A stretch of 64,000 nt of DNA, taken from NCBI RefSeq assembly GCF_030384885.1, contig NZ_CP128613.1, one strand, 5' to 3'. Below, one piece after another: positions 1-28,504 of the stretch. The DNA is from Escherichia coli (GTDB lineage Bacteria; Pseudomonadota; Gammaproteobacteria; Enterobacterales; Enterobacteriaceae). Numbering within the stretch: the stretch's first letter is position 1; each line of letters opens with the position of its first letter. Both the position numbers and the translations under genes were made by a program. The notes below the pieces were generated by a model. The model worked only from the letters and a program-made list of their open reading frames with translations. It was not told where the DNA came from and did not search any database.

Positions 1-67
1 TTTTTTAAACATATTTAACATAGCCAAACGGCAGACGGCATCATCTTCTCTCACTGCGGGAATCAAA

Positions 68-472
68 TCAGTAGGTGGCTGATTTACTCCGAATCACCTC
101 AATTATCCCCGTCGTCGACACCGACGGCGTGCGCGGGAAATAGACCACCTCACAAATATACGCAAAGCTATCAAACTTCCCTGCCCAGTCATCGCCCATC
201 ACCAAAGCATCCGCACTGTACCCCCGCAGATATTCCGCTTTCTGCGCCAGCGACTCCTCCAGAAATACGCCATCCACGCACGCCAGCCCGGCGATAATCG
301 CCATGCGGTCATCCTGAGGGTAAACCGGTGCCCTGCCCTTTTTGGCGATATTTAAAGCATCAGAGGATACGCCGACCAGCAGCCGTTCGCCCAGCGTGCG
401 GGCGCGTTGTAAAAGGCGCAGATGACCGACATGAAACACATCGAAGGTGCCGAAGGTGATGACCGTTTTCAT
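68..472 (-). CDS. cytidylyltransferase-like protein (nucleotidyltransferase HxGH motif, glycerol-3-phosphate cytidylyltransferase-like), accessory gene in lateral flagellar cluster
   Basis: ORF 68..505 trimmed to the internal Met of MKTVITFGTFDVFHVGHLRLL; the TFGTFD..HxGH signature is typical of cytidylyltransferases. Confidence 0.55.
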   Translation of the reverse strand: MKTVITFGTFDVFHVGHLRLLQRARTLGERLLVGVSSDALNIAKKGRAPVYPQDDRMAIIAGLACVDGVFLEESLAQKAEYLRGYSADALVMGDDWAGKFDSFAYICEVVYFPRTPSVSTTGIIEVIRSKSATY

Positions 473-474
473 GG

Positions 475-909
475 CTACTCCGCTAATTTTTGCCGCAGCC
501 AGCACTGAACGGCGATGTCATCCACCGCTTTTTGCGCTTTCGCCGTGGCACTTTCTTGCTGCTCGCGGCGTTTGTCATCCAGCGTCAGGGTCACCACTTT
601 TTCTTCGCATGCCGCCGCCGTCAGGTTTTTCTGCATTCGCGTAGCCTTGATGTTTGCCAGCGTTTTTTCCTGCTCCTGCCAGGCGATCACTTTGCGCAAG
701 GTGCCTTTGTAGCCGCTGACGTTTTTCAGCGATTCCACCGACGCCGCCGCGCCCGCAGATGTTTTCTCCACCAGGTAGCCTAACGCTTTGATATTGTTGT
801 CATAGCCCGCGCAAATCTGTTTTTGCTTTGCCAGCTCGACGGTTTTGTCTTTGACCGATTTATCCCGCAGGCGCTGCAATTGCGCGAGGGTGTCGATGAT
901 TTGTCGCAT
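475..909 (-). CDS. lfiJ: flagellar export chaperone FliJ-like (lateral system)
   Basis: 144 aa coiled-coil-type protein directly downstream of and overlapping the FliI-like ATPase gene; position in fliE-F-G-H-I-J order. Confidence 0.6.
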   Translation of the reverse strand: MRQIIDTLAQLQRLRDKSVKDKTVELAKQKQICAGYDNNIKALGYLVEKTSAGAAASVESLKNVSGYKGTLRKVIAWQEQEKTLANIKATRMQKNLTAAACEEKVVTLTLDDKRREQQESATAKAQKAVDDIAVQCWLRQKLAE

Positions 910-911
910 AG

Positions 912-2249
912 TTACTGTTCTGCCTTTTTGGCACCAGGAAAGAGGATTTGCAGGCGGCTTTGTACCAGTTCGAGGGAGGCGGGTTCGCGCATCTCCTGGC
1001 GTAAAAATCGCTCGATGGCCGGGAACATTTTCACCGCTTTGTCGACGCTGGCATCCGCGCCTGCCACGTAGCCACCGAGTGGGATCAGCGGTTTGATCTC
1101 CATATAGGCGGCGTAGTTTTGCTTTAACGCGCGAGCGGATTGCTGATGTTCCGGGCGGGTGACCTGGTTCATGCAGCGGCTGATCGACTGGCCGATATCG
1201 ATGGCCGGATAGTGCCCCGCTTCCGCCAGTTTGCGGGTTAATACGATATGCCCGTCCAGCACCGCGCGGGCGCAGTCGACGATGGGATCTTGCTGATCGT
1301 CGCCTTCCGCCAGCACGGTGTAGATGGCAGTCATCGATCCCGCGCTTTCGCTGTTGCCTGCGCTTTCGACCAGTTTGGGGATCATGCCGAATGCCGACGG
1401 CGGATAGCCTTTGGTGGCGGGTGGTTCGCCAAGCGAGAGCGCAATTTCACGTTGCGCCATCGCATAGCGGGTCAGGGAATCCACCAGCAGTAAAACATGA
1501 TGCCCGCGGTCGCGAAACCAGGCGGCGATGGAGTGGCACAGTTCGGTGGCTTTCAGGCGCATCAGCGGCGATTCATCGGCGGGCGCGACGACGACGATAG
1601 ACTTCGCCAGCCCGTCCGCGCCCAAGGAATGGTCGATAAACTCTTTCACTTCACGCCCGCGTTCGCCAATCAGCCCAACCACCACGATGTCGGCTTTAGT
1701 CTGGCGGGTGATCATCCCCAGCAGCACGCTTTTCCCGACGCCGCTGCCCGCCATTAGCCCGACGCGCTGGCCTTTGCCGATGGTCAGCAGGCCGTTGATC
1801 GCTTTCACGCCCACATCTAAGGGTTCGTCCACCGAACGGCGGGTTAAGGGATTGACCGAGGGCGGTAGCGGCGGCAGAAGGTCGTTGCCGTTCAGGCGGC
1901 CTTTACCATCCAGCGGTTCGCCGAGGCCATTCACCACGCGGCCTAACCAGCTTTCGCCAATCAGGATGTCGTGGGCTTTTTCTTCCGGGAAGACACGCGC
2001 CCCCGCCATCAGGCCAACTGGCTGTTTGAATGGCATTAAATAGGTGATGTCGCGATTAAAGCCCACGGCCTGCGCGTCAATCAGCGTATGATTGGCGCTT
2101 TCTATGCGGCACAGTTGTCCGGTCATTAATGGGCAGCCGACGCTCTCCAGCAGAATGCCGTTCAGGCGCACCAGCCGTCCGGCGACGCGAGCCAGCGGGA
2201 TCGACTCCAGCGAGCGCAGGGCGTTATCGAAAGCAGAAAAATCACTCAC
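912..2249 (-). CDS. lfiI: flagellum-specific ATP synthase FliI-like (lateral system)
   Basis: 445 aa with Walker A GSGVGKS and F1/T3SS-ATPase-like sequence; follows FliH homologue. Confidence 0.9.
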   Translation of the reverse strand: MSDFSAFDNALRSLESIPLARVAGRLVRLNGILLESVGCPLMTGQLCRIESANHTLIDAQAVGFNRDITYLMPFKQPVGLMAGARVFPEEKAHDILIGESWLGRVVNGLGEPLDGKGRLNGNDLLPPLPPSVNPLTRRSVDEPLDVGVKAINGLLTIGKGQRVGLMAGSGVGKSVLLGMITRQTKADIVVVGLIGERGREVKEFIDHSLGADGLAKSIVVVAPADESPLMRLKATELCHSIAAWFRDRGHHVLLLVDSLTRYAMAQREIALSLGEPPATKGYPPSAFGMIPKLVESAGNSESAGSMTAIYTVLAEGDDQQDPIVDCARAVLDGHIVLTRKLAEAGHYPAIDIGQSISRCMNQVTRPEHQQSARALKQNYAAYMEIKPLIPLGGYVAGADASVDKAVKMFPAIERFLRQEMREPASLELVQSRLQILFPGAKKAEQ

Positions 2250-2952
2250 CCTGCGACTCCGGCGTTAGCGTCTCTTGCAGTGCGGTCATGCATTGTTCAA
2301 GGCGATGCTCGCAGCCGATATCCAGTTCTGATTTATCGGTAATCACCCGGCATTCCCCCGGCGGCAAATCCGGCGAAGGCGTCAGCCCCCATTCGTTGAC
2401 CTTTACCGGCACCGCATCGCGCAGGCGGTTAAACTCTTCCGTGCTCAGCATCACTTGCAGGGTTTCCGGCATCGCCGGGAAGGCCGCCAGCGCCTCTTCC
2501 ACCAGCGCCAGTAACTGCGTCGGTTGCAGCGCCAGTTCGCAGCGAATCACCTGGCGGGTGACTTTCTCCACCAGTTGCAGCAAATCTTCCCGCTGTTTAC
2601 GTTCGATATGGGCGAGGAAGTCGTTCACTTTACCGCTGATGGCCTCCAGCGGCTGCGCCGCTTCAATAAACTGCTTGCGCCCTTCCTGCTGCCCGGCGAG
2701 GCTGCCTTCGGTGTAGCCCTGACGTTGCCCCTCGGCAAAACCTTGCTGATGACCTTCGCTAAAGCCCTGCTCCTGCCCCTCGGTCATGCCCTGAGCAAAC
2801 CCTTTTTGCAGCCCTTCCTGAAAACCGTCCATCAACTGGCGCTGGTAATCGGCGGCGCTAATGCTGGCAGTGAGCGGTTCTCCGGTCACCGCACGCTGGC
2901 GCGGCGGGAAACGGTGCAGGCGATAGCGCCCGCGCAGTGTTTCAATGGTCAT
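2242..2952 (-). CDS. lfiH: flagellar assembly protein FliH-like
   Basis: 236 aa, Gln/Glu-rich repeat region, overlaps fliI start by 8 nt; operon position. Confidence 0.65.
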   Translation of the reverse strand: MTIETLRGRYRLHRFPPRQRAVTGEPLTASISAADYQRQLMDGFQEGLQKGFAQGMTEGQEQGFSEGHQQGFAEGQRQGYTEGSLAGQQEGRKQFIEAAQPLEAISGKVNDFLAHIERKQREDLLQLVEKVTRQVIRCELALQPTQLLALVEEALAAFPAMPETLQVMLSTEEFNRLRDAVPVKVNEWGLTPSPDLPPGECRVITDKSELDIGCEHRLEQCMTALQETLTPESQGE

Positions 2953-2955
2953 GGG

Positions 2956-3966
2956 TTACTCCGCCGTCTGTTCCGCAAAGAGCTGTTGCTGAATTTCGCC
3001 CGCCTCTTCCAGTTCACGGGCGATACCCATGATTTCGCGGCGGATTTGTTCGATACGGCTAACCGGCACCGGACCCAGGCGCGCGGTGATCGCTTCCAGT
3101 TGCTGCACCTGACGTTTTGGCATCACCGCATAAATGGAGCGACGTAACAGGGCTTCGGTGCCTTTCAGCGCCACCGCCCAGTCTTCCATTGGCACTTCGT
3201 CGAGCAGGCGACGGCGTACCTCTTCGTTCTGGCGGCTGAGAATAAAGAAGTCGTACATCTCATCCTGCAACTGCTCCAGCACGTCTTCGTCGCGCTCGCG
3301 CATCTGGTCGAGGATCACCTGCTGGTTTCCCTGGAAGCGGTTGACAATATCCGCCGCCTGTTTGATGCCCTTCACCTTCGAGCCGTGCTCTGAAAGCACC
3401 GACAGGCCGCGTTCGATCAGACGATCCAGTTCATCCACCACGTCGCGGTTGACGTCGTTGAGTTTCGCTACCCGGTAGAGAATTTCGTTTTGCACCGATT
3501 CGTTGAGATAAGAGAGCACCGCCGCCGAGATTTCCGGCGTCAGAAACGCGAGGAATACCGCCTGCAATTGCAGATGTTCTTCGGAGATCAGCATCGCCAG
3601 CTGGCGCGGTTCCACCCATTGCAGGCGCGCCATCCGCGAGCGAATCTCATCGCCGTAGATGCCATTGATCACGCTGCTGGCGATCTCGGTGCCCAGCGCC
3701 TTGTTAAGAATGCCCTGCAACATGGATCGCGATGCGCCGTTGATCCCGCTCTGTTCGCGGAACTCATCAAAGAAGTTATTGATCACTTTGCGTGCCATGC
3801 TGGTTTTGACGCCGGAAAGCCGCGCCATGTTTTCGCTCAGGCGCACCACTTCTTCGCGGCTGAGTTTTTGCATCACCGTTGCCGCCGCTTCTTCGCCCAG
3901 ACACAGCAGCAGAATCGCCGCCTGTTCGAGATAGCTGTTGCTCTTATTTATTGTCAATTCGCTCAT
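2956..3966 (-). CDS. lfiG: flagellar motor switch protein FliG-like
   Basis: ORF 2956..3999; N-terminus MSELTINK..AAILLLCLGEE resembles FliG; start trimmed to second Met, uncertain. Confidence 0.8.
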   Translation of the reverse strand: MSELTINKSNSYLEQAAILLLCLGEEAAATVMQKLSREEVVRLSENMARLSGVKTSMARKVINNFFDEFREQSGINGASRSMLQGILNKALGTEIASSVINGIYGDEIRSRMARLQWVEPRQLAMLISEEHLQLQAVFLAFLTPEISAAVLSYLNESVQNEILYRVAKLNDVNRDVVDELDRLIERGLSVLSEHGSKVKGIKQAADIVNRFQGNQQVILDQMRERDEDVLEQLQDEMYDFFILSRQNEEVRRRLLDEVPMEDWAVALKGTEALLRRSIYAVMPKRQVQQLEAITARLGPVPVSRIEQIRREIMGIARELEEAGEIQQQLFAEQTAE

Positions 3967-5590
3967 TGCTGGTAATCCATTGTCTGAGAACTTCGGCAAC
4001 GCGATCGGTGTCGCTCATGGCCAGTTTTTGCAGGAACTCGAGTTTCACTTCGAGGCCAGAACTCTGGGACGGCAGGCTGTCATCGCCAGGCAGCGACGGC
4101 AGGTCGACATTTTTACGCTCCTCTTCCGGCACGGCGATCCACGGTTCGCTGATGGCTTCCGGTTCTGGTGTGATAACCGGCGCACGTACCGCCGTCAGCC
4201 GTTTCATCAGCGGGCGCACCACAAAGAACAGCAGCAACAGCGCCAGCAGGCCGCAGCCAATCAGCCGCCCCCACGCCAGTACACTGTCATCTTTCCACAG
4301 TGGAATAACCGGTTCGACAGGCACCGCCTGCGGCACAAAGTTGAGCAGTGATAAGGTGAGATTGTCACCACGCTGGGCGTCGATTCCGGCGGCATTATTC
4401 AGCAACGCGGTCAGTTGCGTGGTTTGCTCCGGCTTCCAGTTTTTCAGCGCCGGGGCGTTTTGATTGAGCACCACCGCCACGTTGAGGCGTTTCACCGCAA
4501 AGCCGGGATGCTGAATATGCTGGACGCTGCGGTCGTAAGAGTAGTCGCGCTTACTTTCGCTGTGTTTGGAAAGCGCTTCCGGCGAGCGGTTTTCTTCCGC
4601 ACCGTTGGTCATCTGATTCGCTGCAATCGGCGGACGGTTACTGAGCGAACCGGGCACGCCCATCGCCACCTGATTAGTGTCGCTGTCCAGCACGCTCTCT
4701 TCGCGGTTGATTTTCGGCGCGTCACCGTAGTGTTCCTGAGTTTCGTCGATGGTGCTGAGGTCGAGATCCGGCATCACACTGACGCGGTAATTCCCCATGC
4801 CAACCAGCGAATCCAGCACGTTCGCCACGCTGGCACGGGTTTTGTCCTGAATATCTTTGAGGATCTGATCGCGTTTACGGGTCGCGGCAGAAACCGCCTC
4901 GCCCGCGCCAATGCCGTCGGTCAGCAGATTTCCCGCCTGATCGACGACGCTGACTTTGCTGGCCTGTAGCCCCGGAATACTGCCGGACACCAGATGCACA
5001 ATGGCGTTCACCTGGTCCATATTCAGCTTCGCGCCGTAATGCAAGCGCACCACCACCGAGGCACTGTTTTGCGGCTCATCGCTGACCACAAACGAGCTTT
5101 CTTCGTTGAGCGCCAGATGCACCCGCGCGCTTTCCACCGCGTCCAGCGACATGATGCTCTGCGCCAGCTCCCCTTCGAGGCTGCGTTTATAGCGCACGTT
5201 CTGCACGAACTGACTGCTGCCGAGCATTTCGTCTTTGTCCATCAGCTCGTAGCCGCTGGGCAATATCGCCTGCACGCCTTTCGCGGCAAGGGTCATGCGC
5301 GTTTTCGACAGTTCGTCTTCCGGCACCAGTATCTGCCCGCTTTGCGGGTCGATGCGGTAGGTGAGCTTTTCGCCGTCCAGCACGGTGACAATCTGCGACA
5401 CGGGCAGATTTTCCTGGCGTCCGTAGAGCGAGACGTAGCCGCGATTCCCCGTCCATAGCACGCTGACGATAATCGCCGTCGCCGCAACGGCAAGCCCCAC
5501 ACCCGCCATCAACGCCCAGCGTTTGTTATCTGCGAGCCGCAGTCGAAACGCCGGAAAGGCCTGGGTTAACTTCTTTATTTGTGCATTCAT
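3944..5590 (-). CDS. lfiF: flagellar MS-ring protein FliF-like
   Basis: 548 aa, N-terminal TM segment and FliF/YscJ-like domain; operon position. Confidence 0.85.
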   Translation of the reverse strand: MNAQIKKLTQAFPAFRLRLADNKRWALMAGVGLAVAATAIIVSVLWTGNRGYVSLYGRQENLPVSQIVTVLDGEKLTYRIDPQSGQILVPEDELSKTRMTLAAKGVQAILPSGYELMDKDEMLGSSQFVQNVRYKRSLEGELAQSIMSLDAVESARVHLALNEESSFVVSDEPQNSASVVVRLHYGAKLNMDQVNAIVHLVSGSIPGLQASKVSVVDQAGNLLTDGIGAGEAVSAATRKRDQILKDIQDKTRASVANVLDSLVGMGNYRVSVMPDLDLSTIDETQEHYGDAPKINREESVLDSDTNQVAMGVPGSLSNRPPIAANQMTNGAEENRSPEALSKHSESKRDYSYDRSVQHIQHPGFAVKRLNVAVVLNQNAPALKNWKPEQTTQLTALLNNAAGIDAQRGDNLTLSLLNFVPQAVPVEPVIPLWKDDSVLAWGRLIGCGLLALLLLFFVVRPLMKRLTAVRAPVITPEPEAISEPWIAVPEEERKNVDLPSLPGDDSLPSQSSGLEVKLEFLQKLAMSDTDRVAEVLRQWITSNERIDNK

Positions 5591-5594
5591 AGGG

Positions 5595-5936
5595 TTAGAT
5601 CGACATACTCATCAGATCGTTAAATCCGGTGGCGATTTTGTTGCGCACCTGCACCAGCGCGGAGAAAGAGAGCGACGCCTGCTGGCTGGCGATCATCGCC
5701 CCGGCGAGGTCATCACTTTTGCCCGTGTCGACAGCCGTTTGCTGCTGCTCCGCCACCTGCTGGAACTGGTCAACGTGACCGAGCGCGCCGAACATAATAC
5801 GGTTAAACGACACGTCCGGGTCGGTGGAACTGAAGGTCATGGCGGGTAGCACTGGCGCCTGGGCGTTGGCCTGCATCCGCTGCACGTCCTGCATAATTTG
5901 CGCCTGCATGGTGCTGTTGATTGTGGTAATGCTCAT
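5595..5936 (-). CDS. lfiE: flagellar hook-basal body protein FliE-like
   Basis: ORF 5595..6158 trimmed to MSITTINSTMQ (113 aa); the untrimmed ORF would overlap the upstream regulator gene. Confidence 0.7.
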   Translation of the reverse strand: MSITTINSTMQAQIMQDVQRMQANAQAPVLPAMTFSSTDPDVSFNRIMFGALGHVDQFQQVAEQQQTAVDTGKSDDLAGAMIASQQASLSFSALVQVRNKIATGFNDLMSMSI

Positions 5937-5950
5937 TTTTAACTTCCGGG

Positions 5951-6937
5951 TCAGGAGAAAACTTCGATACCGTGCTTGCGCATGGAGGCCAGTCGATAGC
6001 GCAGGGCACGTGGGGTAATGCCTAACAGGTCGGCGATTTTGCTGCGGTTGCCCTGATATTTGCGCATCAGGTCGGCGATATATTGATACTGCGCGCTTCG
6101 TCCGTGCTGGCCTAAATCGCCGGTTTCGGCAATGTGGACGGCGGGCTGAACAGGCCATTGCAGTTCACTGTGGTCAGCAATATCGGTGTCCGGCAGGCCT
6201 AATGCATCCGGGTAAATTACGCCGTCGCGATTTAAAATCATTCCCCGCTGAATGGCGTTTTCCAGTTGGCGCACGTTACCGGGCCAGCGGTAATTAAGCA
6301 GCGCACGGCGGGTGGATTCGGACAGGGTGATATTTTTCACCAGCACCGTGGAGTATTTTTTAATAAATGACTCTGCCAGCGGAATAATATCGTTCAGGCG
6401 TTCACGCAGTGGCGGCATGGTAATAGGGATAACCGCCAGACGATAATAGAGATCTTCACGAAAACGTCCGGCGGCAACTTCCTGCTCCAGGTTTTTATTG
6501 GTGCAGGCAATCAGGCGAAAATTGAGTTTGATTTGTCGGTTACTGCCTAATCGCTCAACCTGTTGTTCCTGCAATACGCGTAATATTTTGGCCTGTAGCG
6601 CCAGCGGCATTTCACCAATTTCATCGAGTAATAAGGTGCCGTTATTTGCCAGTTCCATTTTTCCTGGCACGCTGGCAATTGCGCCGGTAAATGCACCTTT
6701 GTCGTAGCCAAATAACGTCGATTCCAGCATATTTTCCGGGATCGCCGCGCAGTTCACGCCGATATAGGGCGCATTATCATTTTCACCAAAGGCTACGGTG
6801 TGAATATACTTCGCCACGCACTCTTTCCCCGCGCCGGTTTCGCCCTGAATCAGGACCGGCACGTTAAAGGCGGCGACACGCTTTGCCAGAGTAAAAGCGT
6901 TAATGCTGGAGGCGGCAGATGCAATAAGTTCAGACAT
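5951..6937 (-). CDS. lafK: sigma54-dependent transcriptional activator (AAA+ and C-terminal HTH, no receiver domain), lateral flagellar regulator
   Basis: 328 aa; Walker A GETGAGKE near the N-terminus, GAFTGA motif (YDKGAFTGAI), C-terminal HTH; no room upstream for a receiver domain. Confidence 0.85.
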   Translation of the reverse strand: MSELIASAASSINAFTLAKRVAAFNVPVLIQGETGAGKECVAKYIHTVAFGENDNAPYIGVNCAAIPENMLESTLFGYDKGAFTGAIASVPGKMELANNGTLLLDEIGEMPLALQAKILRVLQEQQVERLGSNRQIKLNFRLIACTNKNLEQEVAAGRFREDLYYRLAVIPITMPPLRERLNDIIPLAESFIKKYSTVLVKNITLSESTRRALLNYRWPGNVRQLENAIQRGMILNRDGVIYPDALGLPDTDIADHSELQWPVQPAVHIAETGDLGQHGRSAQYQYIADLMRKYQGNRSKIADLLGITPRALRYRLASMRKHGIEVFS

Positions 6938-7061
6938 AGGGTGAACAATATAAGTAGCGACAATAATCAGGATGTTCTGAAGCGTATCACCGGCGGGATT
7001 AACAAGTTTGAATTAAACGATAATAAAAATATTATTTGTTTACAAACAACGAGTTATCCAT

Positions 7062-7144
7062 GTAGGCCGGATAAGGCGTTTACGCCGCATCCGACAATCT
7101 TGCACCGGTGCCTGATGCGATGCTGCGCGTCTTATCAGGCCTAC
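7062..7144. repeat. BIME: two inverted REP elements (GCCGGATAAGGCGTTTACGCCGCATCC and GCCTGATGCGATGCTGCGCGTCTTATCAGGC types)
   Basis: Canonical E. coli REP sequences read directly in the lafK/lfiM divergent intergenic region. Confidence 0.7.
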
Positions 7145-7323
7145 TGTTCGTGCAATGTTTTATGACGATGCCTGATATCTCACCCTTTAATAATTTAATT
7201 ATTTTTTCACCCTATTAATAATTTGCCCCTTTCACGCCCCGTCTATTTAATACCTCACCTTGTGTCACTGCCGGAATTGCATGCACAAAAACGCCCATAC
7301 CATTACAGCAGAGAAAGTAAGCC

Positions 7324-8175
7324 ATGCTGAAGTACAGTAAAACGCCAGGCATCTTTAAATTAGAAGGTAATCGGCTCGGACGCCCCTACCATCGCCTGCC
7401 GACCCTGTTTACGGGGAATTTTGACGTGATTGATTCGCATCTTGGCAGCTACTTTCTCAAAAAGCATCGCAGCAATATCACTTTAAAAAAGATTGGTTGC
7501 GAAATGGATATTATTAATAAAAACGCCGAGTTGATGGTTTCCCAGGTCGGGCATCTGGCGTTTGATATTGATCGTTCCTTATTGTTAATGCTGCTGGGTA
7601 ATTTTTATGGTCTGGAATCGTCTCTTGAAGAGGCGAAAGCGCATAACGGCCTACCGACCAAAACCGAAACACGATTAAAGAACCGACTCGCGCTGGATAT
7701 CTGCACGCTGATATTTAATCTGCAAACCTCCGGTATTGCACTGAAATTAAAACTGGACAGCAGCACAGTGATTACCCACTGGGCGTATCAATTAACCTTT
7801 ACCCTCGCGGGCGATGAAGAGAGCCGTTTTCGTATTTTGCTCGACGATGCCCACACCGATTTTATTTTAAATCTGATCCGCCACAGTGAGCACAGTAAAC
7901 CGCAGCAGGTGGCGAAATCCGTCAACAAGCCGGCACTGATTAAAGAGATCATCCGCTCCCTGCCGTTGACCCTGAACGTCAAAATCGCCGAGCTGTCGAT
8001 GAATGTTGCCGATCTGGCGCAGGTAAAAGCCGGAGATATTTTACCCATCTCGCTGGGAGAAACGTTCCCGGTGGCGATTGGGCAATCTGAATTATTTAGC
8101 GCCCTGATAGTGGAAGACAAAGACAAACTGTTTTTGTCGGAGCTGGCGGGCAAAAATGAGAATAGCCATGAGTAA
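7324..8175 (+). CDS. lfiM: flagellar motor switch protein FliM-like
   Basis: 283 aa, C-terminal SpoA-like region; precedes fliN homologue with overlap. Confidence 0.65.
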   Translation: MLKYSKTPGIFKLEGNRLGRPYHRLPTLFTGNFDVIDSHLGSYFLKKHRSNITLKKIGCEMDIINKNAELMVSQVGHLAFDIDRSLLLMLLGNFYGLESSLEEAKAHNGLPTKTETRLKNRLALDICTLIFNLQTSGIALKLKLDSSTVITHWAYQLTFTLAGDEESRFRILLDDAHTDFILNLIRHSEHSKPQQVAKSVNKPALIKEIIRSLPLTLNVKIAELSMNVADLAQVKAGDILPISLGETFPVAIGQSELFSALIVEDKDKLFLSELAGKNENSHE

Positions 8176-8539
8176 GCAAGAAGATATTTTAGCCGGGGAT
8201 TTTGGCCTCACCGATGACGTTGCGCCTGTCACGAAATCCGCCGACGCCGAAACGCTGGTCACCCGCCTGGAGGACCGTTTTTCCGACTCGATGACGCTGC
8301 TGAAACGCATTCCGGTGACCTTAACGCTGGAAGTCTCCTCGGTGGAAATCATGTTAGCCGACCTGCTGAACATCGACGATGACACGGTGATTGAACTGGA
8401 TAAACTCGCCGGGGAGCCGCTGGATATCAAAGTGAACAATATCCTGCTGGGCAAAGCGGAAGTGGTAGTGGTCAACGAGAAGTACGGCCTGCGCGTGCTG
8501 GAGTTTAACACCCGCGATATCAACGACCTGGCGCCATGA
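8156..8539 (+). CDS. lfiN: flagellar motor switch protein FliN-like
   Basis: 127 aa, SpoA/FliN C-terminal domain. Confidence 0.8.
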   Translation: MRIAMSKQEDILAGDFGLTDDVAPVTKSADAETLVTRLEDRFSDSMTLLKRIPVTLTLEVSSVEIMLADLLNIDDDTVIELDKLAGEPLDIKVNNILLGKAEVVVVNEKYGLRVLEFNTRDINDLAP

Positions 8540-9288
8540 AACGCCGCACTCAACTGACGCTGGGCCTGGCGCTGCTGGCGCTCGCGCCGCTGGCATTAGC
8601 CCAGGGCGGCGATATTGCGCTGCTTAATGTGGTCACTCACGGCAACACTCAGGAGTACAGCGTCAAAATTCAGGTACTGATTCTGATGACCCTCGTCGGT
8701 TTGTTGCCGACGATGGTGCTGATGATGACCTGCTTTACGCGCTTTATTATCGTGCTTTCACTACTGCGCCAGGCGCTGGGGCTGCAACAAACGCCGCCAA
8801 ACCGCATTCTGATTGGCATTGCGCTCTCCCTCACCCTGCTGGTGATGCGCCCTGTCTGGCTGAATATTTACGACCACGCGGTGGTGCCGTTCGAAAACGA
8901 TCAGATTACCCTGACCGATGCGTTAAGCACCGCCGCGACGCCGCTGAAACGCTTTATGCTGGCGCAGACCGACAAAAAAGCGATGGCGCAAATCATGACC
9001 ATCGGCGGCGCAAAGGGCAATGCCGCCGACCAGGATCTCTCCATCGTGGTGCCCGCCTATGTGCTGAGCGAACTGAAAACCGCTTTCCAGATTGGCTTTA
9101 TGATTTACATCCCGTTTCTGGTTATCGACCTGATTGTCGCCAGCGTATTGATGGCGATGGGGATGATGATGCTGTCGCCGCTGATCGTTTCGCTGCCCTT
9201 TAAGCTGATGCTGTTTGTGCTGATCGACGGCTGGTCGTTGACCATCGGCACGCTCACCACCAGCATTCGCGGACTGGGGCTGGGCTGA
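8536..9288 (+). CDS. lfiP: flagellar export apparatus protein FliP-like
   Basis: 250 aa, signal peptide plus FliP-type membrane segments; 4-nt overlap with fliN. Confidence 0.9.
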   Translation: MKRRTQLTLGLALLALAPLALAQGGDIALLNVVTHGNTQEYSVKIQVLILMTLVGLLPTMVLMMTCFTRFIIVLSLLRQALGLQQTPPNRILIGIALSLTLLVMRPVWLNIYDHAVVPFENDQITLTDALSTAATPLKRFMLAQTDKKAMAQIMTIGGAKGNAADQDLSIVVPAYVLSELKTAFQIGFMIYIPFLVIDLIVASVLMAMGMMMLSPLIVSLPFKLMLFVLIDGWSLTIGTLTTSIRGLGLG

Positions 9289-9290
9289 TT

Positions 9291-9563
9291 ATGCTGACCG
9301 TTGACGTAGCCGCCGACATTGTCGCCAGCGGCATAAAAGTGGTGATTTTACTGGTTTCGGTACTGGTGGTGCCAAGCCTGCTCGTTGGCCTGCTGGTGAG
9401 CGTGTTCCAGGCGGTGACGCAGATTAACGAACAGACCCTGAGCTTTTTGCCGAGGCTGATTGTCACGCTGGTGGTGCTGGGGATATGCGGCAAATGGATG
9501 ATTACCCAGTTGCATGACCTGTGCATTCACCTGTTTAGCCAGGCCGCGTTGCTGGTGCATTAA
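9291..9563 (+). CDS. lfiQ: flagellar export apparatus protein FliQ-like
   Basis: 90 aa two-TM protein, FliQ-like. Confidence 0.85.
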   Translation: MLTVDVAADIVASGIKVVILLVSVLVVPSLLVGLLVSVFQAVTQINEQTLSFLPRLIVTLVVLGICGKWMITQLHDLCIHLFSQAALLVH

Positions 9564-9564
9564 G

Positions 9565-10347
9565 ATGCGCACAAGCGACGTTACGCAACTGACGGATCTG
9601 GCGCTGGGGCTGTGGTTTCCCTTCGTGCGCATTATGGCGTTTCTGCGCTATGTGCCGGTGCTGGATAACAGCGCCCTGACTATGCGCGTGCGGATTATTT
9701 TGTCGCTGGCGCTGGCAATCATCATCACGCCGTTGATCCCCCATCCCATTCCGCATGATTTGCTCTCGCTCAACAGTTTGATCCTGACGGTGGAGCAAAT
9801 CTTATGGGGCATGTTATTCGGGCTGATGTTTCAGTTTCTGTTTCTGGCGCTGCAACTCGCCGGGCAAATTCTCTCGTTCAATATGGGGATGAGCATGGCG
9901 GTGATGAACGACCCGAGCAGCGGCGCATCGACCACCGTGCTGGCGGAGCTTATCAACGTCTACGCGATCCTGCTGTTTTTTGCCATGGACGGGCATCTGT
10001 TGCTGGTGAGCGTGTTGTACAAGGGCTTCACCTACTGGCCGATTGGCAACGCGCTGCATCCGCAAACCCTGCGCACCATTGCGCTGGCCTTTAGCTGGGT
10101 GCTGGCGTCCGCATCGCTGCTTGCGCTGCCGACCACTTTTATCATGCTGATTGTGCAGGGCTGCTTTGGCCTGCTCAACCGCATTGCGCCGCCGCTGAAT
10201 CTCTTTTCACTTGGCTTTCCCATCAACATGCTGGCAGGGCTGGTCTGCTTTGCCACCCTGCTCTACAACCTGCCGGATCACTATCTGCATATGGCGAATT
10301 TTGTGTTGCAGCAGCTCGACGCGCTGAAAGGTCACTATGGCGGATAG
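9565..10347 (+). CDS. lfiR: flagellar export apparatus protein FliR-like
   Basis: ORF 9514..10347 trimmed to the ATG just after the fliQ stop (260 aa); polytopic membrane protein. Confidence 0.85.
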   Translation: MRTSDVTQLTDLALGLWFPFVRIMAFLRYVPVLDNSALTMRVRIILSLALAIIITPLIPHPIPHDLLSLNSLILTVEQILWGMLFGLMFQFLFLALQLAGQILSFNMGMSMAVMNDPSSGASTTVLAELINVYAILLFFAMDGHLLLVSVLYKGFTYWPIGNALHPQTLRTIALAFSWVLASASLLALPTTFIMLIVQGCFGLLNRIAPPLNLFSLGFPINMLAGLVCFATLLYNLPDHYLHMANFVLQQLDALKGHYGG

Positions 10348-11476
10348 CAGCAGCGAAGAAAAAACAGAGAAACCCTCGGCGCAAAAGCTGCGTAAAGCGC
10401 GTGAAGAGGGACAACTGCCGCGCTCAAAGGATATAGGGCTGGCGGCGAGCCTGTTTGCGGCGTTTGTGGTGATCTCCAGCAGCTTCCCGTGGTATGCCGA
10501 TTTTGTACGCGAGAGTTTTATCAGCGTGCATCAGTACGCGCAGGAGATTAATAACCCGGAGGTGATCGGCCAGTTTCTGCGCCATCACCTGTTAATTCTC
10601 GGCAAGTTTATTCTCACCTTGCTACCGATGCCCGCCGCCGCGCTGCTCTCTTCGCTGGTGCCCGGTGGCTGGCTGTTCTTGCCAAAAAAAATCCTCCCGG
10701 ATTTCAGCAAAATCAGTCCGTTAAAAGGGATTGGGCGGCTGTTCTCCAGTGAACATCTTGCGGAAACAGGCAAGATGACGGCGAAGTCGGTGGTGGTGCT
10801 GGTGATGCTGTGGATTAGCCTGCGCAATAACTTTGCCGCCTTCCTCGGCCTGCAAGCGCTGCCGTTCAAACTGGCGATGAATGAGGGTTTGTCGCTCTAC
10901 GCCAGCGTGATGCGCAACTTTGTCATCCTGTTTATTTTCTTCGCGCTTATCGACGTGCCGCTGGCGAAAGCCCTGTTCACCAAAGGGCTGAAGATGACTA
11001 AGCAGGAGCTGAAAGAAGAGTACAAAAATCAGGAAGGCAAGCCGGAAGTGAAGGCGCGCGTGCGGCGGCTGCAACGGCAACTGGCGATGGGGCAAATTCG
11101 CAAAGTGGTGCCGAAAGCCAACGTGGTGATCACCAACCCGACCCACTACGCCGTGGCGTTGCAGTATGACCAGTCACGCGCCGCCGCGCCGTTTGTGGTG
11201 GCAAAAGGTACCGATGAAATCGCCCTCTATATTCGTCAGGTCGCCACTGAAAATCAGGTGGAAGTGGTCGAGTTCCCGCGACTGGCGCGCTCGGTTTACT
11301 ACACCACCCAGGTGAATCAGCAAATTCCGTTTCAGCTTTACCGGGCCATCGCCCACGTTCTGACCTACGTCCTGCAAATGAAACACTGGCGCGACGGCGC
11401 ACAGCCGCGCCCGGCTCTGAACAGACATATTTCCATTCCCAAAGAGGTGCTTAAACTGGATGGCGAAAACAACTAA
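10337..11476 (+). CDS. lfhB: flagellar export apparatus protein FlhB-like
   Basis: 379 aa, contains the FlhB autocleavage motif NPTHY. Confidence 0.9.
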   Translation: MADSSSEEKTEKPSAQKLRKAREEGQLPRSKDIGLAASLFAAFVVISSSFPWYADFVRESFISVHQYAQEINNPEVIGQFLRHHLLILGKFILTLLPMPAAALLSSLVPGGWLFLPKKILPDFSKISPLKGIGRLFSSEHLAETGKMTAKSVVVLVMLWISLRNNFAAFLGLQALPFKLAMNEGLSLYASVMRNFVILFIFFALIDVPLAKALFTKGLKMTKQELKEEYKNQEGKPEVKARVRRLQRQLAMGQIRKVVPKANVVITNPTHYAVALQYDQSRAAAPFVVAKGTDEIALYIRQVATENQVEVVEFPRLARSVYYTTQVNQQIPFQLYRAIAHVLTYVLQMKHWRDGAQPRPALNRHISIPKEVLKLDGENN

Positions 11477-13553
11477 ATCGTTCCTCGCGCTACTGCGCGG
11501 CGGCAATCTCGGCGTGCCGCTGGTGATCTTGTGTATTCTGGCGATGGTTATTTTGCCGCTGCCGCCTGCGCTGCTGGATATTCTGTTCACCTTCAACATT
11601 GTGCTGGCGGTGATGGTGCTGCTGGTGGCGGTGTCGGCGAAACGTCCGCTGGAATTCAGCCTGTTCCCGACTATTTTGCTGATCACCACCTTAATGCGCC
11701 TGACGCTTAACGTTGCTTCTACGCGCGTGGTGCTGCTGCACGGGCATCTCGGCGCGGGCGCAGCGGGTAAGGTGATTGAGTCGTTTGGTCAGGTGGTGAT
11801 TGGCGGCAACTTTGTCGTCGGTTTCGTGGTGTTTATCATCCTGATGATCATCAACTTTATTGTCGTCACCAAAGGGGCCGAGCGTATTTCCGAGGTTTCT
11901 GCCCGCTTTACCCTAGACGCGATGCCCGGCAAGCAAATGGCGATTGACGCCGATCTTAACGCCGGGTTGATCAACCAGGCGCAGGCGCAGACCCGCCGCA
12001 AAGATGTTGCCAGCGAGGCCGATTTCTACGGCGCGATGGACGGGGCATCGAAGTTTGTGCGCGGGGATGCCATCGCCGGGATGATGATTCTGGCGATCAA
12101 CCTGATTGGCGGCGTTTGTATCGGGATCTTCAAATACAACCTGAGCGCCGATGCCGCCTTCCAGCAGTATGTGCTGATGACCATCGGTGACGGGCTGGTA
12201 GCGCAGATCCCGTCCCTGCTGCTCTCTACCGCGGCAGCGATTATCGTCACCCGCGTCAGCGACAACGGCGATATCGCCCATGACGTGCGCCATCAGTTGC
12301 TGGCAAGCCCGTCGGTGCTCTACACCGCCACCGGGATTATGTTCGTGCTGGCGGTGGTGCCGGGAATGCCGCACTTCCCGTTCCTGATGTTCAGCGCCTT
12401 GCTTGGCTTTACCGGCTGGCGAATGAGCAAACGCCCGCAGGCGGCGGAGGCGGAAGAGAAAAGCCTCGAAACGCTGACCCGCACAATCACTGAAACCAGC
12501 GAGCAACAGGTCAGTTGGGAAACCATTCCGCTGATCGAGCCCATCAGTTTAAGCCTCGGTTACAAGCTGGTGGCGCTGGTGGACAAAGCGCAGGGCAACC
12601 CGCTCACCCAGCGTATTCGCGGCGTGCGGCAGGTGATTTCCGACGGCAACGGCGTGCTGCTGCCGGAGATCCGTATTCGCGAAAACTTCCGCCTCAAGCC
12701 CAGCCAGTACGCCATTTTCATCAACGGCATTAAGGCTGATGAAGCTGATATTCCGGCGGATAAACTGATGGCGTTGCCCTCCAGCGAAACCTACGGCGAG
12801 ATAGACGGCGTGCTGGGGAACGACCCGGCGTACGGGATGCCGGTCACCTGGATTCAGCCCGCGCAGAAGGCGAAGGCGCTGAATATGGGGTATCAGGTGA
12901 TCGACAGCGCCAGCGTGATTGCTACCCATGTTAATAAGATTGTGCGCAGCTATATTCCTGATTTGTTTAACTATGACGACATCACGCAGTTGCATAACCG
13001 TTTGTCGTCAATGGCACCGCGCCTGGCAGAGGATTTGAGTGCGGCGCTGAATTACAGCCAGTTGCTGAAAGTGTACCGGGCACTACTGACCGAAGGCGTT
13101 TCCCTGCGCGATATCGTCACCATCGCCACCGTGCTGGTCGCCAGTAGCACCGTCACCAAAGATCATATTCTGCTGGCGGCCGATGTGCGCCTGGCACTGC
13201 GGCGCAGCATTACCCATCCGTTCGTTCGCAAGCAGGAGCTGACGGTGTATACGCTGAATAATGAGCTGGAAAACCTGCTGTCCAACGTGGTGAATCAGGC
13301 GCAACAGGCTGGCAAAGTGATGCTCGATAGCGTGCCGGTGGACCCGAATATGCTCAACCAGTTCCAGAACACGATGCCGCAGGTGAAAGAGCAGATGAAA
13401 GCGGCAGGGAAAGACCCGGTGCTGCTGGTGCCGCCGCAGTTGCGCCCTTTGCTGGCGCGTTATGCGAGGTTGTTTGCGCCGGGGTTGCATGTGCTGTCGT
13501 ATAACGAAGTGCCGGACGAGCTGGAGTTGAAGATTATGGGGGCGTTGAGTTGA
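11460..13553 (+). CDS. lfhA: flagellar export apparatus protein FlhA-like
   Basis: 697 aa, FlhA/InvA-family N-terminal membrane domain and cytoplasmic domain. Confidence 0.9.
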   Translation: MAKTTKSFLALLRGGNLGVPLVILCILAMVILPLPPALLDILFTFNIVLAVMVLLVAVSAKRPLEFSLFPTILLITTLMRLTLNVASTRVVLLHGHLGAGAAGKVIESFGQVVIGGNFVVGFVVFIILMIINFIVVTKGAERISEVSARFTLDAMPGKQMAIDADLNAGLINQAQAQTRRKDVASEADFYGAMDGASKFVRGDAIAGMMILAINLIGGVCIGIFKYNLSADAAFQQYVLMTIGDGLVAQIPSLLLSTAAAIIVTRVSDNGDIAHDVRHQLLASPSVLYTATGIMFVLAVVPGMPHFPFLMFSALLGFTGWRMSKRPQAAEAEEKSLETLTRTITETSEQQVSWETIPLIEPISLSLGYKLVALVDKAQGNPLTQRIRGVRQVISDGNGVLLPEIRIRENFRLKPSQYAIFINGIKADEADIPADKLMALPSSETYGEIDGVLGNDPAYGMPVTWIQPAQKAKALNMGYQVIDSASVIATHVNKIVRSYIPDLFNYDDITQLHNRLSSMAPRLAEDLSAALNYSQLLKVYRALLTEGVSLRDIVTIATVLVASSTVTKDHILLAADVRLALRRSITHPFVRKQELTVYTLNNELENLLSNVVNQAQQAGKVMLDSVPVDPNMLNQFQNTMPQVKEQMKAAGKDPVLLVPPQLRPLLARYARLFAPGLHVLSYNEVPDELELKIMGALS

Positions 13554-13636
13554 TTGAGGATTCTTTTCCATACTTTGCAGCACCTGACACCATTAATTGA
13601 CGTCACACTGCAAAGAGACTACGATGACACCATACA

Positions 13637-13936
13637 ATGACGTCATGGATTGATAGTATGATTAAGGTCAGCGCGCTAGGCTCTCGTCATAGAAAAACAT
13701 TCGACGATGTAATGACGGAGCCGCCAAAATCTGGAATTAAATGGGATGATGTTGTTGCTCTCATTAAAGCGGTGGGTGGCTCAATAAAAAATAACAACGG
13801 CTCCAGACGAAAATTTCAGATTGGAACGACCAAATTCAGCACACATGAGCCGCATCCAAAGAATGTGATGGATAAAGGCGCAGTAGCAGGTCTTAAGGAG
13901 TGGTTTGTTAACTGTGTAGGGGTAGATTATGAATAA
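13637..13936 (+). CDS. HicA-like toxin candidate (mRNA interferase fold) with N-terminal extension
   Basis: 99 aa; ALIKAVGGSIK..GSRRKF..THEPHPKNVMDKGAVAGLKEW resembles the HicA pattern; overlaps the downstream gene by 8 nt; true start may be an internal Met. Confidence 0.45.
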   Translation: MTSWIDSMIKVSALGSRHRKTFDDVMTEPPKSGIKWDDVVALIKAVGGSIKNNNGSRRKFQIGTTKFSTHEPHPKNVMDKGAVAGLKEWFVNCVGVDYE

Positions 13937-14285
13937 AGCATCGAACATTATCACAATTAAAGGTCAACCAGCCGCAGTGACATTTGAAGCCGATATCAAC
14001 GCATTTCGCGGCAAGTTCCTCAATGTAAACGGTTATTGTGACTTTGTAGCCACAAGTATTGAGGCATTATATCGTGAAGGCGAAAGCGCTCTGGATGAGT
14101 GGATGGCGGATTGTGAAGAGGACGGTATTGCCCCTTTTCGTGAAGAAGAAGAGCAAAAACGCCTGACGCTTCGTGTGCCGCATCACATCGATTCGCGGCT
14201 GACCATCGTCGCCAGACAACATTCCATTTCAAAAAACCAGCTCATTATTGATGTCTTAGAACGTGAGTTTTCAGCCCAGATGTAA
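13929..14285 (+). CDS. HicB-like antitoxin candidate with C-terminal ribbon-helix-helix DNA-binding domain
   Basis: 118 aa; C-terminus KRLTLRVPHHIDSRLTIVARQHSISKNQLIIDVLEREF is RHH/CopG-like; coupled to the upstream small gene. Confidence 0.45.
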   Translation: MNKASNIITIKGQPAAVTFEADINAFRGKFLNVNGYCDFVATSIEALYREGESALDEWMADCEEDGIAPFREEEEQKRLTLRVPHHIDSRLTIVARQHSISKNQLIIDVLEREFSAQM

Positions 14286-14317
14286 ACAGGTCGGATGCCG
14301 CGTGGCATCCGACCTGT
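14286..14317. terminator. perfect 14-bp stem hairpin between convergent genes (bidirectional terminator candidate)
   Basis: ACAGGTCGGATGCC-GCGT-GGCATCCGACCTGT read directly. Confidence 0.4.
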
Positions 14318-14341
14318 TGCCAGTTCGTCAATATTACCCAT

Positions 14342-15100
14342 TTACAAAATCGTCTCTTCCGTCAAAATCCGCCGCGCGCCTAAAAAATGATCATGCCAGA
14401 AAGGTTCAGCTAACCGACTTACCCGAATGGTTTCCCCGGTGCGCGGCGACTCGATAAACTGACCGTCTCCCAGATACACGCCCATATGGTCGGCAATCTC
14501 GCGGCTGTGAATATGGAAAAACAGCAAATCTCCCCGGCGCAGGTCGTTATTTGCCACAATGGTTGCCCGACGGTAGTGATACATCTCATTGGCCGTGCGC
14601 GGGAGTTTCGCCTCGAGGATCTTGTTGTAGGCATAAAAAACCAACCCGCTACAGTCGAAGCCTTGATCGGGTCGCGTGCCGCCCCAGACGTATGGCTTGC
14701 CAAGCTGCTGCTCCAGACGGTGAATCGCCACTTCGGTGATATTATGCAGGTGGTTACTGCTGAGGAAATGATTGTTTTCCGCCAGCGCCTGCCAGCGTCT
14801 GTCACTCGCCTTGAGCGGCGCAGGAAACCATTCTGGATGCTGTTTTATCTGTTCGCGGTTGTGTTGCCGCAGTGCCCTTCTGCTTTCGGCATTGCCTTCC
14901 ACAATATAGCTGGCCTGCTTTTTCAGATGAATTTGGTACTGTTTTAATAAACGCGCACGGTTTTGCATCCGCTGGCGGGCGGCGTAGCTGAAAGAGATAT
15001 GTGATGTGGTGGCGCTGGCGAGTAAAGGGAGCAAAACGCATAACGAAAACACGCCTGGATGCAGAAATCTGCCGAGCAAGAACGAAGACATGAAGGACAT
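14342..15100 (-). CDS. yafL: NlpC/P60-family peptidoglycan endopeptidase
   Basis: 252 aa; NlpC/P60 catalytic region GFDCSGLV; synteny with yafK. Confidence 0.8.
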   Translation of the reverse strand: MSFMSSFLLGRFLHPGVFSLCVLLPLLASATTSHISFSYAARQRMQNRARLLKQYQIHLKKQASYIVEGNAESRRALRQHNREQIKQHPEWFPAPLKASDRRWQALAENNHFLSSNHLHNITEVAIHRLEQQLGKPYVWGGTRPDQGFDCSGLVFYAYNKILEAKLPRTANEMYHYRRATIVANNDLRRGDLLFFHIHSREIADHMGVYLGDGQFIESPRTGETIRVSRLAEPFWHDHFLGARRILTEETIL

Positions 15101-15391
15101 AAACCGGCTGAATGAAGGTGAGAATTTTAAAAGACCGGAGGAGTAAACGGGATTATTAATTGCTTATTTGCATATTACTATTGAGGTTTCATAATCTTAG
15201 GAAATAAATGATACATGCGCTTTTCGGACTAATGAAAACTGCCCTTGTGCTAAATTTGTAAACCCTGCGCCGACAGGCTTGCGTAAAACTCTTTTGGTGA
15301 TAATGTGAGCCTTCCAAATCCAGACTATTCCGATTTGGGATCCATTTTGCCGTCCTGGCGTGTGTAACCGTTTTATCAAGGAATAAGCAGT

Positions 15392-16132
15392 ATGCGTAAA
15401 ATCGCATTAATTCTTGCGATGTTGTTGATCCCGTGCGTTTCGTTTGCCGGTTTGCTGGGCAGCAGTAGCTCGACCACGCCAGTGAGCAAAGAGTATAAGC
15501 AGCAGTTGATGGGATCCCCTGTCTACATCCAGATCTTCAAGGAAGAACGTACGCTCGATCTCTACGTCAAAATGGGCGAGCAATATCAACTGCTCGACAG
15601 CTATAAAATCTGTAAATATTCCGGCGGCTTGGGGCCAAAACAGCGTCAGGGCGATTTCAAAAGCCCGGAAGGGTTTTATAGCGTCCAGCGTAATCAGTTA
15701 AAACCAGACAGCCGTTACTACAAGGCGATTAATATCGGTTTCCCCAATGCCTATGACCGTGCGCATGGTTATGAAGGGAAATACCTGATGATCCACGGCG
15801 ATTGTGTTTCCATCGGCTGCTACGCGATGACCAATCAGGGTATTGATGAGATCTTCCAGTTCGTTACTGGTGCGCTGGTGTTTGGTCAGCCGAGCGTGCA
15901 AGTGAGTATTTACCCGTTCCGCATGACCGACGCCAATATGAAGCGCCATAAATATTCCAACTTTAAGGACTTCTGGGAGCAACTGAAGCCGGGCTACGAC
16001 TACTTTGAGCAAACCCGTAAGCCACCGACCGTTTCTGTGGTCAATGGCCGTTACGTGGTCAGCAAGCCGTTAAGCCACGAAGTTGTGCAACCACAGCTGG
16101 CATCAAACTACACGCTCCCCGAGGCAAAATAA
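15392..16132 (+). CDS. yafK: L,D-transpeptidase-like periplasmic protein
   Basis: 246 aa with signal peptide and YkuD-like region ([12 protein letters not shown]). Confidence 0.85.
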
Positions 16133-16870
16133 GCGCCATTCGCCTGGCATAATCTTTTGCCAGGTTTCATTGCCCGTCAGCGGCTGTGTTGCAATCACCG
16201 TGACCACATCATTCGGTGTGGTCTGCGAGCTGAAGTCGATTTCCACATCCTGATCCAGCAACGTTGCCACGCCAAACGGCGCGCGGCGGGTGATCCAGTG
16301 TAAATTAGTCGAGCAATACGCCATTACATAGCGCCCGTCCGAAAGCAGCATGTTGAAAACGCCCTTCTGCCGCAGTTCATCCGCCAGTGAGGCGATATAT
16401 TTAAATACCGCCGCCATGTTGCCCGGTGTGCGCGGGTAACGCTGCGTTAATTTATGTAGGAGCCAGCAGAAGGCTTTTTCGCTGTCGGTTTCGCCTACCG
16501 GGCGGAAGTTGCCGGTTTCCAGTGATTTGTAGCCCGTCAGTTGTCCGTTATGGGCATAAGTCCAGTTACGCCCCCATAACTCGCGGGTAAATGGGTGAGT
16601 ATTTTCCAGCGCCACCTCGCCCCGATTAGCCTGGCGAATATGAGCCACCACCGAACAGGATTTTATCGGGTAGTCCTGGACAAGTTTGGCGATGGGGGAA
16701 TTAAAGCTGGGTTGTGGATCTTTAAATGTGCGACAGCCTTTACCTTCGTAAAAGGTAATGCCCCAGCCATCTTTATGTGGCCCGGTTCCACCACCACGCT
16801 GTACAAGTCCGGTGAAACTAAAGCAGATATCGGTAGGGACGTTGGCGCTCATCCCGAGCAATTCGCACAT
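16103..16870 (-). CDS. yafJ: class II glutamine amidotransferase-like protein
   Basis: ORF 16103..16885 trimmed to [11 protein letters not shown]; N-terminal Cys after Met is typical of class II GATase. Confidence 0.85.
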
Positions 16871-16958
16871 CGGTAACCTCCACAACAGCGGGAGCGCATG
16901 GCCCCCGGCGAAGATTGATTAAAAAGTAATAAGGTGCAGGCTGTTACCCTCACCCCGG

Positions 16959-16981
16959 CCCTCTCCCTGATAGGGAGAGGG
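16959..16981. terminator. perfect 9-bp hairpin CCCTCTCCC-TGATA-GGGAGAGGG downstream of gmhA (no clear U-tract)
   Basis: Read directly from sequence between gmhA and yafJ. Confidence 0.35.
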
Positions 16982-16991
16982 AGAAAAGCCC

Positions 16992-17570: not shown

Positions 17571-17809
17571 GAGGATATCCTTCAGCATAAATGTAATAGA
17601 CAAAATGCAGTGTACCGGATACCGCCAAAAGCGAGAAGTACGGGCAGGTGCGATGACCAGGACTTTTTGACCTGAAGTGCGGATAAAAACAGCAACAATG
17701 TGAGCTTTGTTGTAATTATATTGTAAACACATTGCTAAATATTTTTACATCCACTACAACCATATCATCACAAGTGGTCAGACCTCCTACAAGTAAGGGG
17801 CTTTTCGTT

Positions 17810-20254: not shown

Positions 20255-20262
20255 TTGAATAA

Positions 20263-20286: not shown

Positions 20287-20296
20287 TATCCGCTAA

Positions 20297-28502: not shown

Positions 28503-28504
28503 GA

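Follow-up and report, generated by a model that had tools for sequence, protein, structure and literature searches.

Lateral flagella have a proven swarming function in Vibrio and Aeromonas, not in Escherichia. Flag-2, the secondary flagellar system of Enterobacterales, is of the lateral type. The Flag-2 locus, found in Escherichia coli, was reportedly described in strain 042 by Ren et al. in 2005 (J Bacteriol 187:1430), and it is expressed in Yersinia enterocolitica. Cluster 1 of this locus is defined by 14 genes in the order lfhAB-lfiRQPNM-lafK-lfiEFGHIJ, and in Plesiomonas the system works and its swarming function is proven (De Maayer et al., PMC6993521). We analyzed a stretch of 64,000 nucleotides (hereafter, the window) from contig NZ_CP128613.1 of the assembly GCF_030384885.1, deposited as E. 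coli, and found that positions 475–13553 (hereafter, the arm) can be taken with high confidence as a complete and intact Flag-2 cluster 1. Earlier publications already cover the locus with its division into three clusters, its uneven occurrence among strains and the lfhA/lafU scar of K-12; the finding is correct, already known in kind, and ordinary.

The comparison with the published definition revealed that the cluster 1 gene order is matched exactly, with 14 of the 14 genes in order and their frames open. The arm was collinear with annotated E. coli Flag-2 loci that carry lafA and lafU, at 94–98% identity over 99% of the query. The best match among the complete genomes was RMDEC465 (97.7%), which has the same gene order and carries lfg and laf genes upstream, including one annotated as “lateral flagellin LafA.” On sequence grounds, this nucleotide-level homology settles the membership in Flag-2.

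The 14 genes are packed tightly into two units that diverge from each other: the minus strand carries lfiJIHGFE-lafK, and the plus strand carries lfiMNPQR-lfhBA (Table 1). A first-pass annotation, made by a model from the letters of the window alone, had described a complete, tightly overlapping set of lateral flagellar export and basal body genes ending with an flhA homologue. The gene set, the open frames and the tight packing stood; the single run of genes did not, as there are two divergent units. The same annotation placed the window start inside the export genes, which was wrong: the window opens in variable region 1 (VR1) of Flag-2, where a 67-nt spacer is followed by a cargo gene, and lfiJ ends only at position 475. 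All 15 frames, the cargo gene included, were open, with correct starts and stops and zero internal stops, and their lengths equaled those of the RefSeq annotation in three independent E. coli Flag-2 loci. Adjacent genes were separated by gaps of 1–14 nt or overlapped by 4–23 nt, with the 386-nt divergent region between lafK and lfiM as the sole exception.

Gene identities were assigned from NCBIfam scans and the list of open reading frames (ORFs), and Pfam domains were added; the matches, at the coordinates given in Table 1, were far above chance. The start of lfiE agrees with a length of 342 nt in a RefSeq-annotated Flag-2 locus, and the longer ORF of 187 residues is an upstream over-extension into lafK. 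For lfiM, whose model matches were weak, the counterpart in the annotated locus belongs to the FliM/FliN family. LafK has only the Pfam domains Sigma54_activat, AAA_lid_14 and, at the C-terminus, HTH_8, with no receiver domain, and carries the GAFTGA sigma-54 contact motif at residue 81. In LfhB, the NPTH autocleavage motif was found at residue 267. The coding parts of the arm had a G+C content of 0.55–0.61 versus ~0.50 in the flanking chromosome, which agrees with the positive G+C deviation published for Flag-2 in Escherichia (PMC6993521).

Table 1. Features of the Flag-2 cluster 1 region in the window (coordinates in nucleotides from the window start)
Feature	Coordinates	Strand	Evidence
VR1 spacer	1–67		Identical to near-identical relatives; matches of sensu stricto E. 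coli start only at base 87–92
VR1 cargo gene, cytidylyltransferase family, TagD-like, 134 aa	68–472	−	TIGR00125, 61 bits, above cutoff; Pfam CTP_transf_like
lfiJ, FliJ homologue, export chaperone/stalk, 144 aa	475–909	−	TIGR02473, 58 bits (cutoff 50); frame open
lfiI, FliI homologue, export ATPase, 445 aa, GTG start	912–2249	−	NF005535/PRK07196, 772 bits (cutoff 715), E 1.8e-232
lfiH, FliH homologue, ATPase regulator, 236 aa	2242–2952	−	NF009925/PRK13386, 311 bits (cutoff 192); frame open
lfiG, FliG homologue, rotor/switch, 336 aa	2956–3966	−	TIGR00207, 200 bits; Pfam FliG_N/M/C
lfiF, FliF homologue, MS ring, 548 aa	3944–5590	−	TIGR00206, 221 bits, above cutoff
lfiE, FliE homologue, rod adaptor, 113 aa	5595–5936	−	TIGR00205, 70 bits; ATG start, open frame
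lafK, sigma-54-dependent activator, 328 aa	5951–6937	−	Sigma-54 activator families, E ~1e-96
lafK/lfiM divergent AT-rich intergenic region	6938–7323		GC 0.45–0.46
lfiM, divergent FliM-like C-ring protein, 283 aa	7324–8175	+	Weak TIGR01397, E 7e-7; weak Pfam FliMN_C
lfiN, FliN homologue, 123 aa	8168–8539	+	TIGR02480, 83 bits; frame open
lfiP, FliP homologue, export gate, 250 aa	8536–9288	+	TIGR01103, 245 bits, above cutoff
lfiQ, FliQ homologue, 90 aa	9291–9563	+	TIGR01402, 84 bits
lfiR, FliR homologue, 260 aa	9565–10347	+	TIGR01400, 174 bits, above cutoff; start per RefSeq annotation
lfhB, FlhB homologue, substrate-specificity switch, 379 aa	10337–11476	+	TIGR00328, 345 bits
lfhA, FlhA homologue, export gate, 697 aa, full length	11460–13553	+	TIGR01398, 774 bits, above cutoff, E 8.9e-233
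Join site of the K-12-type deletion in lfhA, CTGATGATCATC	11841–11852	+	Junction alignments

The limits of the locus were consistent with this identity. On the lfhA side, the boundary was seen directly: lfhA, the outermost gene of the Flag-2 locus, is followed by hicAB, yafL, dpaA, yafJ, lpcA, and fadE. The usual chromosomal site of Flag-2 runs from yafL/rayT to dinB, and its lafU-dinB side, which lies beyond the window, was seen in the draft genome GCA_053417115.1.

The first-pass annotation had also stated that the cluster continues past the window start. This is unreadable from the window itself, and relatives that differ from it by 2–5 single-nucleotide polymorphisms (SNPs) do run through to lafU and dinB. 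These relatives are draft assemblies that contain exactly the protein encoded by the cargo gene, and the upstream walk was done with the FlgE and LafZ proteins; FlgG was too conserved as an upstream probe and returned unrelated lineages at 92–96%. The 2–5 SNPs were counted against window positions 1–10472, with bases 1–67 identical, and GCA_053417115.1 differed by 2 SNPs. In the relatives, a convergent gene that encodes an 823-aa GT2 glycosyltransferase ends 77 nt ahead of window position 1 and is followed, going upstream, by a FliB-like (LafV-like) methylase, lfgN, M, A, B, C, D, E, F, G, H, I, J, K, L, lafW, and lafZ; after lafZ come lafA, B, C, D, E, F, S, T, U, and then dinB. In GCA_053417115.1, the stretches L004 and L017 lie on a single contig and are joined by a perfect overlap, and the cluster 2/3 frames of this genome from lfgD to lafU (genes on L017) all translate cleanly. 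Clusters 2 (lfgN-L) and 3 (lafW, lafZ, lafA-U) are present and open in the near-identical relatives, which were used as a proxy for the source strain. Because these relatives carry the rest of the locus, Flag-2 is very probably complete in the source strain too.

In Flag-2 loci, VR1 cargo for flagellin modification is located between lfiJ and lfgN. TagD-like genes, GT2 glycosyltransferases, and FliB-like (LafV) methylases are common VR1 cargo (De Maayer et al., PMC6993521). Here, a cytidylyltransferase-family gene abuts lfiJ, and the GT2 and FliB-like methylase genes come next in the relatives. Only the family-level model was passed by the cargo gene, which scored 110 bits with the specific TagD model TIGR01518, under its cutoff of 165. 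The gene is presumed to have a role in flagellin glycan synthesis.

The search for the arm in 5426 complete E. coli genomes (megablast) revealed that 1270 of them (23%) have at least 80% of it at one place, with ~94–98% identity. This carriage matches the published share of 24% (PMC6993521) and bears out the earlier statement that an intact Flag-2 system is present in only some E. coli. Nearly all the other complete genomes matched only from 11841/11850 to 13548/13553, a segment annotated as a partial FlhA adjoining lafU. All that K-12 MG1655 keeps of the locus is two pseudogenes, lfhA (b0229) and lafU (b0230), which lie between rayT and dinB. Its lfhA remnant is 94.4% identical to window positions 11841–13548, in agreement with the first-pass claim that K-12 retains only a truncated lfhA. 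Given that the match starts at 11841, the remnant lacks the first ~390 nt of lfhA and everything upstream. The same lfhA/lafU remnant state was found in O157:H7 and most other genomes.

Cryptic clade I of Escherichia is regarded as related to E. coli at the level of a subspecies, and some of its members produce Shiga toxin or enterotoxin. Along dnaE-ldcC-accA, the window was 100% identical to strain 2013C-4282 and ~96.5% identical to typical E. coli. Window positions 11841–26677 had 99.946% identity with 2013C-4282, and the arm was ~94% identical to most E. coli alleles. Since 2013C-4282 is listed among the cryptic clade I genomes (Okuno et al., PMC10100065) and its dnaE region is identical to that of the window, the host is, judged by these alignments, a member of Escherichia cryptic clade I and not a standard E. 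coli phylogroup strain. In 2013C-4282, the closest relative with a complete genome, the Flag-2 locus is deleted.

We compared the 14 genes with two alleles of E. coli sensu stricto and obtained ratios of nonsynonymous to synonymous substitution (dN/dS) of 0.042–0.043, with dS of ~0.22–0.24; versus RMDEC465 the ratio was 0.039. A dN/dS of 0.04 implies that the genes were kept by selection over the whole divergence between clade I and E. coli. The substitution pattern thus indicates strong purifying selection on the arm across this divergence, and with it a selected function.

Different identities and uses for these genes were weighed against a lateral flagellum. That they belong to the primary flagellum (Flag-1) or to a nonflagellar injectisome type III secretion system (T3SS) is so improbable that it can be set aside. 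Sct-family models also matched the export proteins, at lower scores: the flagellar equivalog models outscored them for every shared component, and homologues of FliE, FliF, FliG, FliM, and FliN are present, on which grounds the injectisome was rejected. Flag-1 was rejected because the genes of the window are gathered in one compact cluster that includes lafK and occupies the lfhA/lafU site adjoining yafL, whereas Flag-1 genes are dispersed in the flg, flh, and fli regions and LafK is absent from Flag-1 (PMC6993521). The FlhA homologue also speaks against it. LfhA aligned end to end with the V. parahaemolyticus lateral-flagellar FlhA (PDB 7AMY; PMC8213127) at 888 bits. The next FlhA, a chain of 692 aa (36hw), reached 574 bits. 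With these two scores, the label “lateral type” is justified on alignment evidence for at least the FlhA homologue, the sole protein compared. From its length, we take 36hw to be the primary enteric (Salmonella-type) FlhA. It is also improbable, if less extremely so, that the apparatus is mainly a protein secretion device for cargo effectors and not for motility, as postulated by De Maayer et al. This role is a speculative proposal that comes from the effector-like VR1/VR2 cargo of some taxa (PMC6993521); the cargo in the window is of the flagellin-modification type (cytidylyltransferase), and the relatives add a GT2 gene and a FliB-like methylase, not effectors, and retain the genes for rotor, stator (LafT/U), hook, and filament.

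The source strain may assemble a working second flagellum, for which we see at best an even chance. Several observations weigh against it. Fresh lesions occur in the near-identical relatives, namely LfiH Q76* in L003 and L013 and a lafA that is split in L015; in RMDEC465, copies of IS621 are inserted and lfgE-J are missing. The window has a private LfiG substitution, L327Q (nt 2987), near the C-terminus, where the seven other alleles compared (four near-identical relatives and three more distant E. coli) all have L. Despite the neighboring lafK, a canonical −24/−12 site was absent upstream of lfiM (6938–7323) and of lfiE (5937–6400). The sister strain 2013C-4282 has lost the locus altogether. 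In EC958 (ST131), an intact-looking Flag-2 is unexpressed, with no LafA and no motility under the tested conditions (PMC4637896), strain 042 has an inactivating frameshift, and at least one core gene is missing in 22% of Flag-2 loci (PMC6993521). Such facts favor the view that the arm is intact and Flag-2 is nevertheless silent or broken in this strain, as a relic not yet decayed, owing to lesions outside the window, to LfiG L327Q, or to a lack of expression; this we hold to be almost, though not quite, an even proposition. The recent coding SNPs among the near-identical relatives could be counted on the same side, as 14 of 15 were nonsynonymous (10 of 11 in cluster 1 and 4 of 4 in clusters 2/3). 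They give only a hint of frequent recent loss: the excess was not significantly above neutrality (~P = 0.08), and an excess of this kind is normal at very recent divergence. The relic view is also opposed by the long-term dN/dS of 0.04, by the 15 of 15 open frames in the window and by the whole locus being open in a genome 2 SNPs away.

If the flagellum is assembled, its working can be proposed by homology with the flagellar type III export apparatus and basal body. LfhA, LfhB, and LfiPQR would form the membrane export gate, and LfiH, LfiI, and LfiJ the cytoplasmic ATPase complex. LfiF would make the MS ring; LfiG, LfiM, and LfiN, the rotor/switch C ring; and LfiE, the adaptor from the MS ring to the rod. 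LafK, a sigma-54 enhancer-binding protein without a receiver, may activate the flagellar operons of the early and middle classes, which is the role of its namesake in V. parahaemolyticus. With clusters 2 and 3 added, the arm would produce a second flagellum, probably glycosylated and methylated, and its expression would be expected only under particular conditions.

The search for promoters gave no support to a specific regulatory site. With the sigma-54 consensus TGGCAC-N5-TTGCW and up to two mismatches, there were 31 matches in the window versus 42 expected by chance, and none of them was in the lafK/lfiM region. A GG-N10-GC scan upstream of lfiM, lafK, and lfiE returned only poor candidates, and the sigma-70 and terminator scans were at chance level. 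Because these scans were poor or at chance, no promoter was assigned. Since a canonical sigma-54 promoter is absent upstream of lfiM and lfiE, the LafK/sigma-54 control of the arm is suggested by analogy with Vibrio. The lafK/lfiM intergenic region contains a REP/BIME element at 7065–7141 (Rfam naRNA4/CssrE, 73.5 bits; gathering threshold 59.5); those E. coli Flag-2 loci whose alignment through the region has no gaps conserve it.

The alignments of the lfhA/lafU deletion bear on how Flag-2 is lost. In intact relatives, the lafU partner of the lfhA join site is CTGTTGACTATC, which matches the lfhA sequence CTGATGATCATC at 9 of 12 positions, with the crossover in ATC; the junction maps to 11841–11852 of the window, 15399–15410 of L002, and 2947–2958 of L017. 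This imperfect 12-nt repeat fits the “direct repeats” mentioned for the lfhA/lafU deletion (PMC6993521). The scar junction, in which ...CTGTTGAC(A/T) is joined to ATCAACTTTAT..., falls at the identical nucleotide in MG1655, O157:H7 9234, KFu022, and the clade I strain 2013C-4282. The lfhA flank of the 2013C-4282 scar matched the intact haplotype without a SNP for 3.6 kb, and the lafU flank did so for ~0.95 kb. The scar was ~6% diverged from the sensu stricto scars throughout, and clade I bases were kept up to the junction. In E. coli sensu stricto, the 1.7-kb 3′ part of lfhA (11850–13553) was unusually diverse, with 95–97% pairwise identity, and the alleles of scar and intact loci did not form separate groups.

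These comparisons suggest that the same lfhA/lafU deletion may have recurred at exactly one junction, as opposed to a single ancestral event, and we consider the matter evenly balanced. The scar could instead be an old polymorphism with heavy homogenization of its flanks; recurrence is the simplest reading. If recurrence is true, the loss of Flag-2 would be a hotspot event through the imperfect direct repeat CTGWTGAYYATC, repeated in natural populations, and it would have occurred also within a near-clonal lineage of Shiga-toxin-producing E. coli (STEC).

Beyond correct annotation, the intact arm has little significance, and public assemblies and RefSeq protein sets already contain near-identical sequences of it. 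A cryptic clade I lineage with a fully open Flag-2 cluster 1 is of mild use. The source strain and 2013C-4282, which has no locus, would make a natural near-isogenic pair for the role of Flag-2 in Escherichia.

Other observations concern the neighboring sequence. A hicA-hicB toxin-antitoxin pair (13658–14285) comes after lfhA, where K-12 has rayT. The dinJ-yafQ genes of K-12 and RMDEC465 are absent between yafL (14342–15100) and dpaA (15392–16132), that is, from 15101–15391; both arrangements are the same in 2013C-4282. An accessory stretch at 21735–30636 contains an ISAs1 transposase (21735–22808), a group II intron with its reverse transcriptase/maturase (23003–24820), a C-terminal fragment of an RHS core (25756–26748), an Hcp/TssD gene (27106–27585), a tRNA (30563–30636), and several ORFs without a family match. 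The match with 2013C-4282 ends at 26677, inside the RHS gene, which in that strain is full length and followed by VgrG, Hcp, and a full type VI secretion system (T6SS) island. A complete rRNA operon occupies 38787–44023 on the minus strand and contains 16S, two tRNAs, a StyR-44 match, 23S, and 5S, followed by a tRNA.

The closest known systems are the Flag-2 loci of E. coli 042 and other E. coli, with which the window shares the 14 genes, their order, orientation and lengths, the chromosomal site, and the VR1 cargo type, a TagD-like cytidylyltransferase adjoining lfiJ. The window allele is ~5–6% diverged from the sensu stricto Flag-2 alleles because its host belongs to cryptic clade I. The sensu stricto loci also differ from it in the last ~6 codons of the cargo gene and in the sequence before base 87, and LfiG L327Q is private to the window among the alleles compared. 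The Laf systems of V. parahaemolyticus and Aeromonas hydrophila are made of the same gene families and have the sigma-54 activator LafK within the cluster, and the lateral FlhA of V. parahaemolyticus aligns over its whole length with that of the window. They belong to other genera, and the window LafK, with 328 aa, lacks the N-terminal receiver-like domain. The K-12-type scar of lfhA (fhiA) and lafU (mbhA) retains an lfhA part that corresponds to window positions ~11850–13553. Missing from it are ~390 nt at the start of lfhA and the ~36 kb between lfhA and the lafU remnant, whereas the window has the full 697-aa gene and the genes upstream of it.

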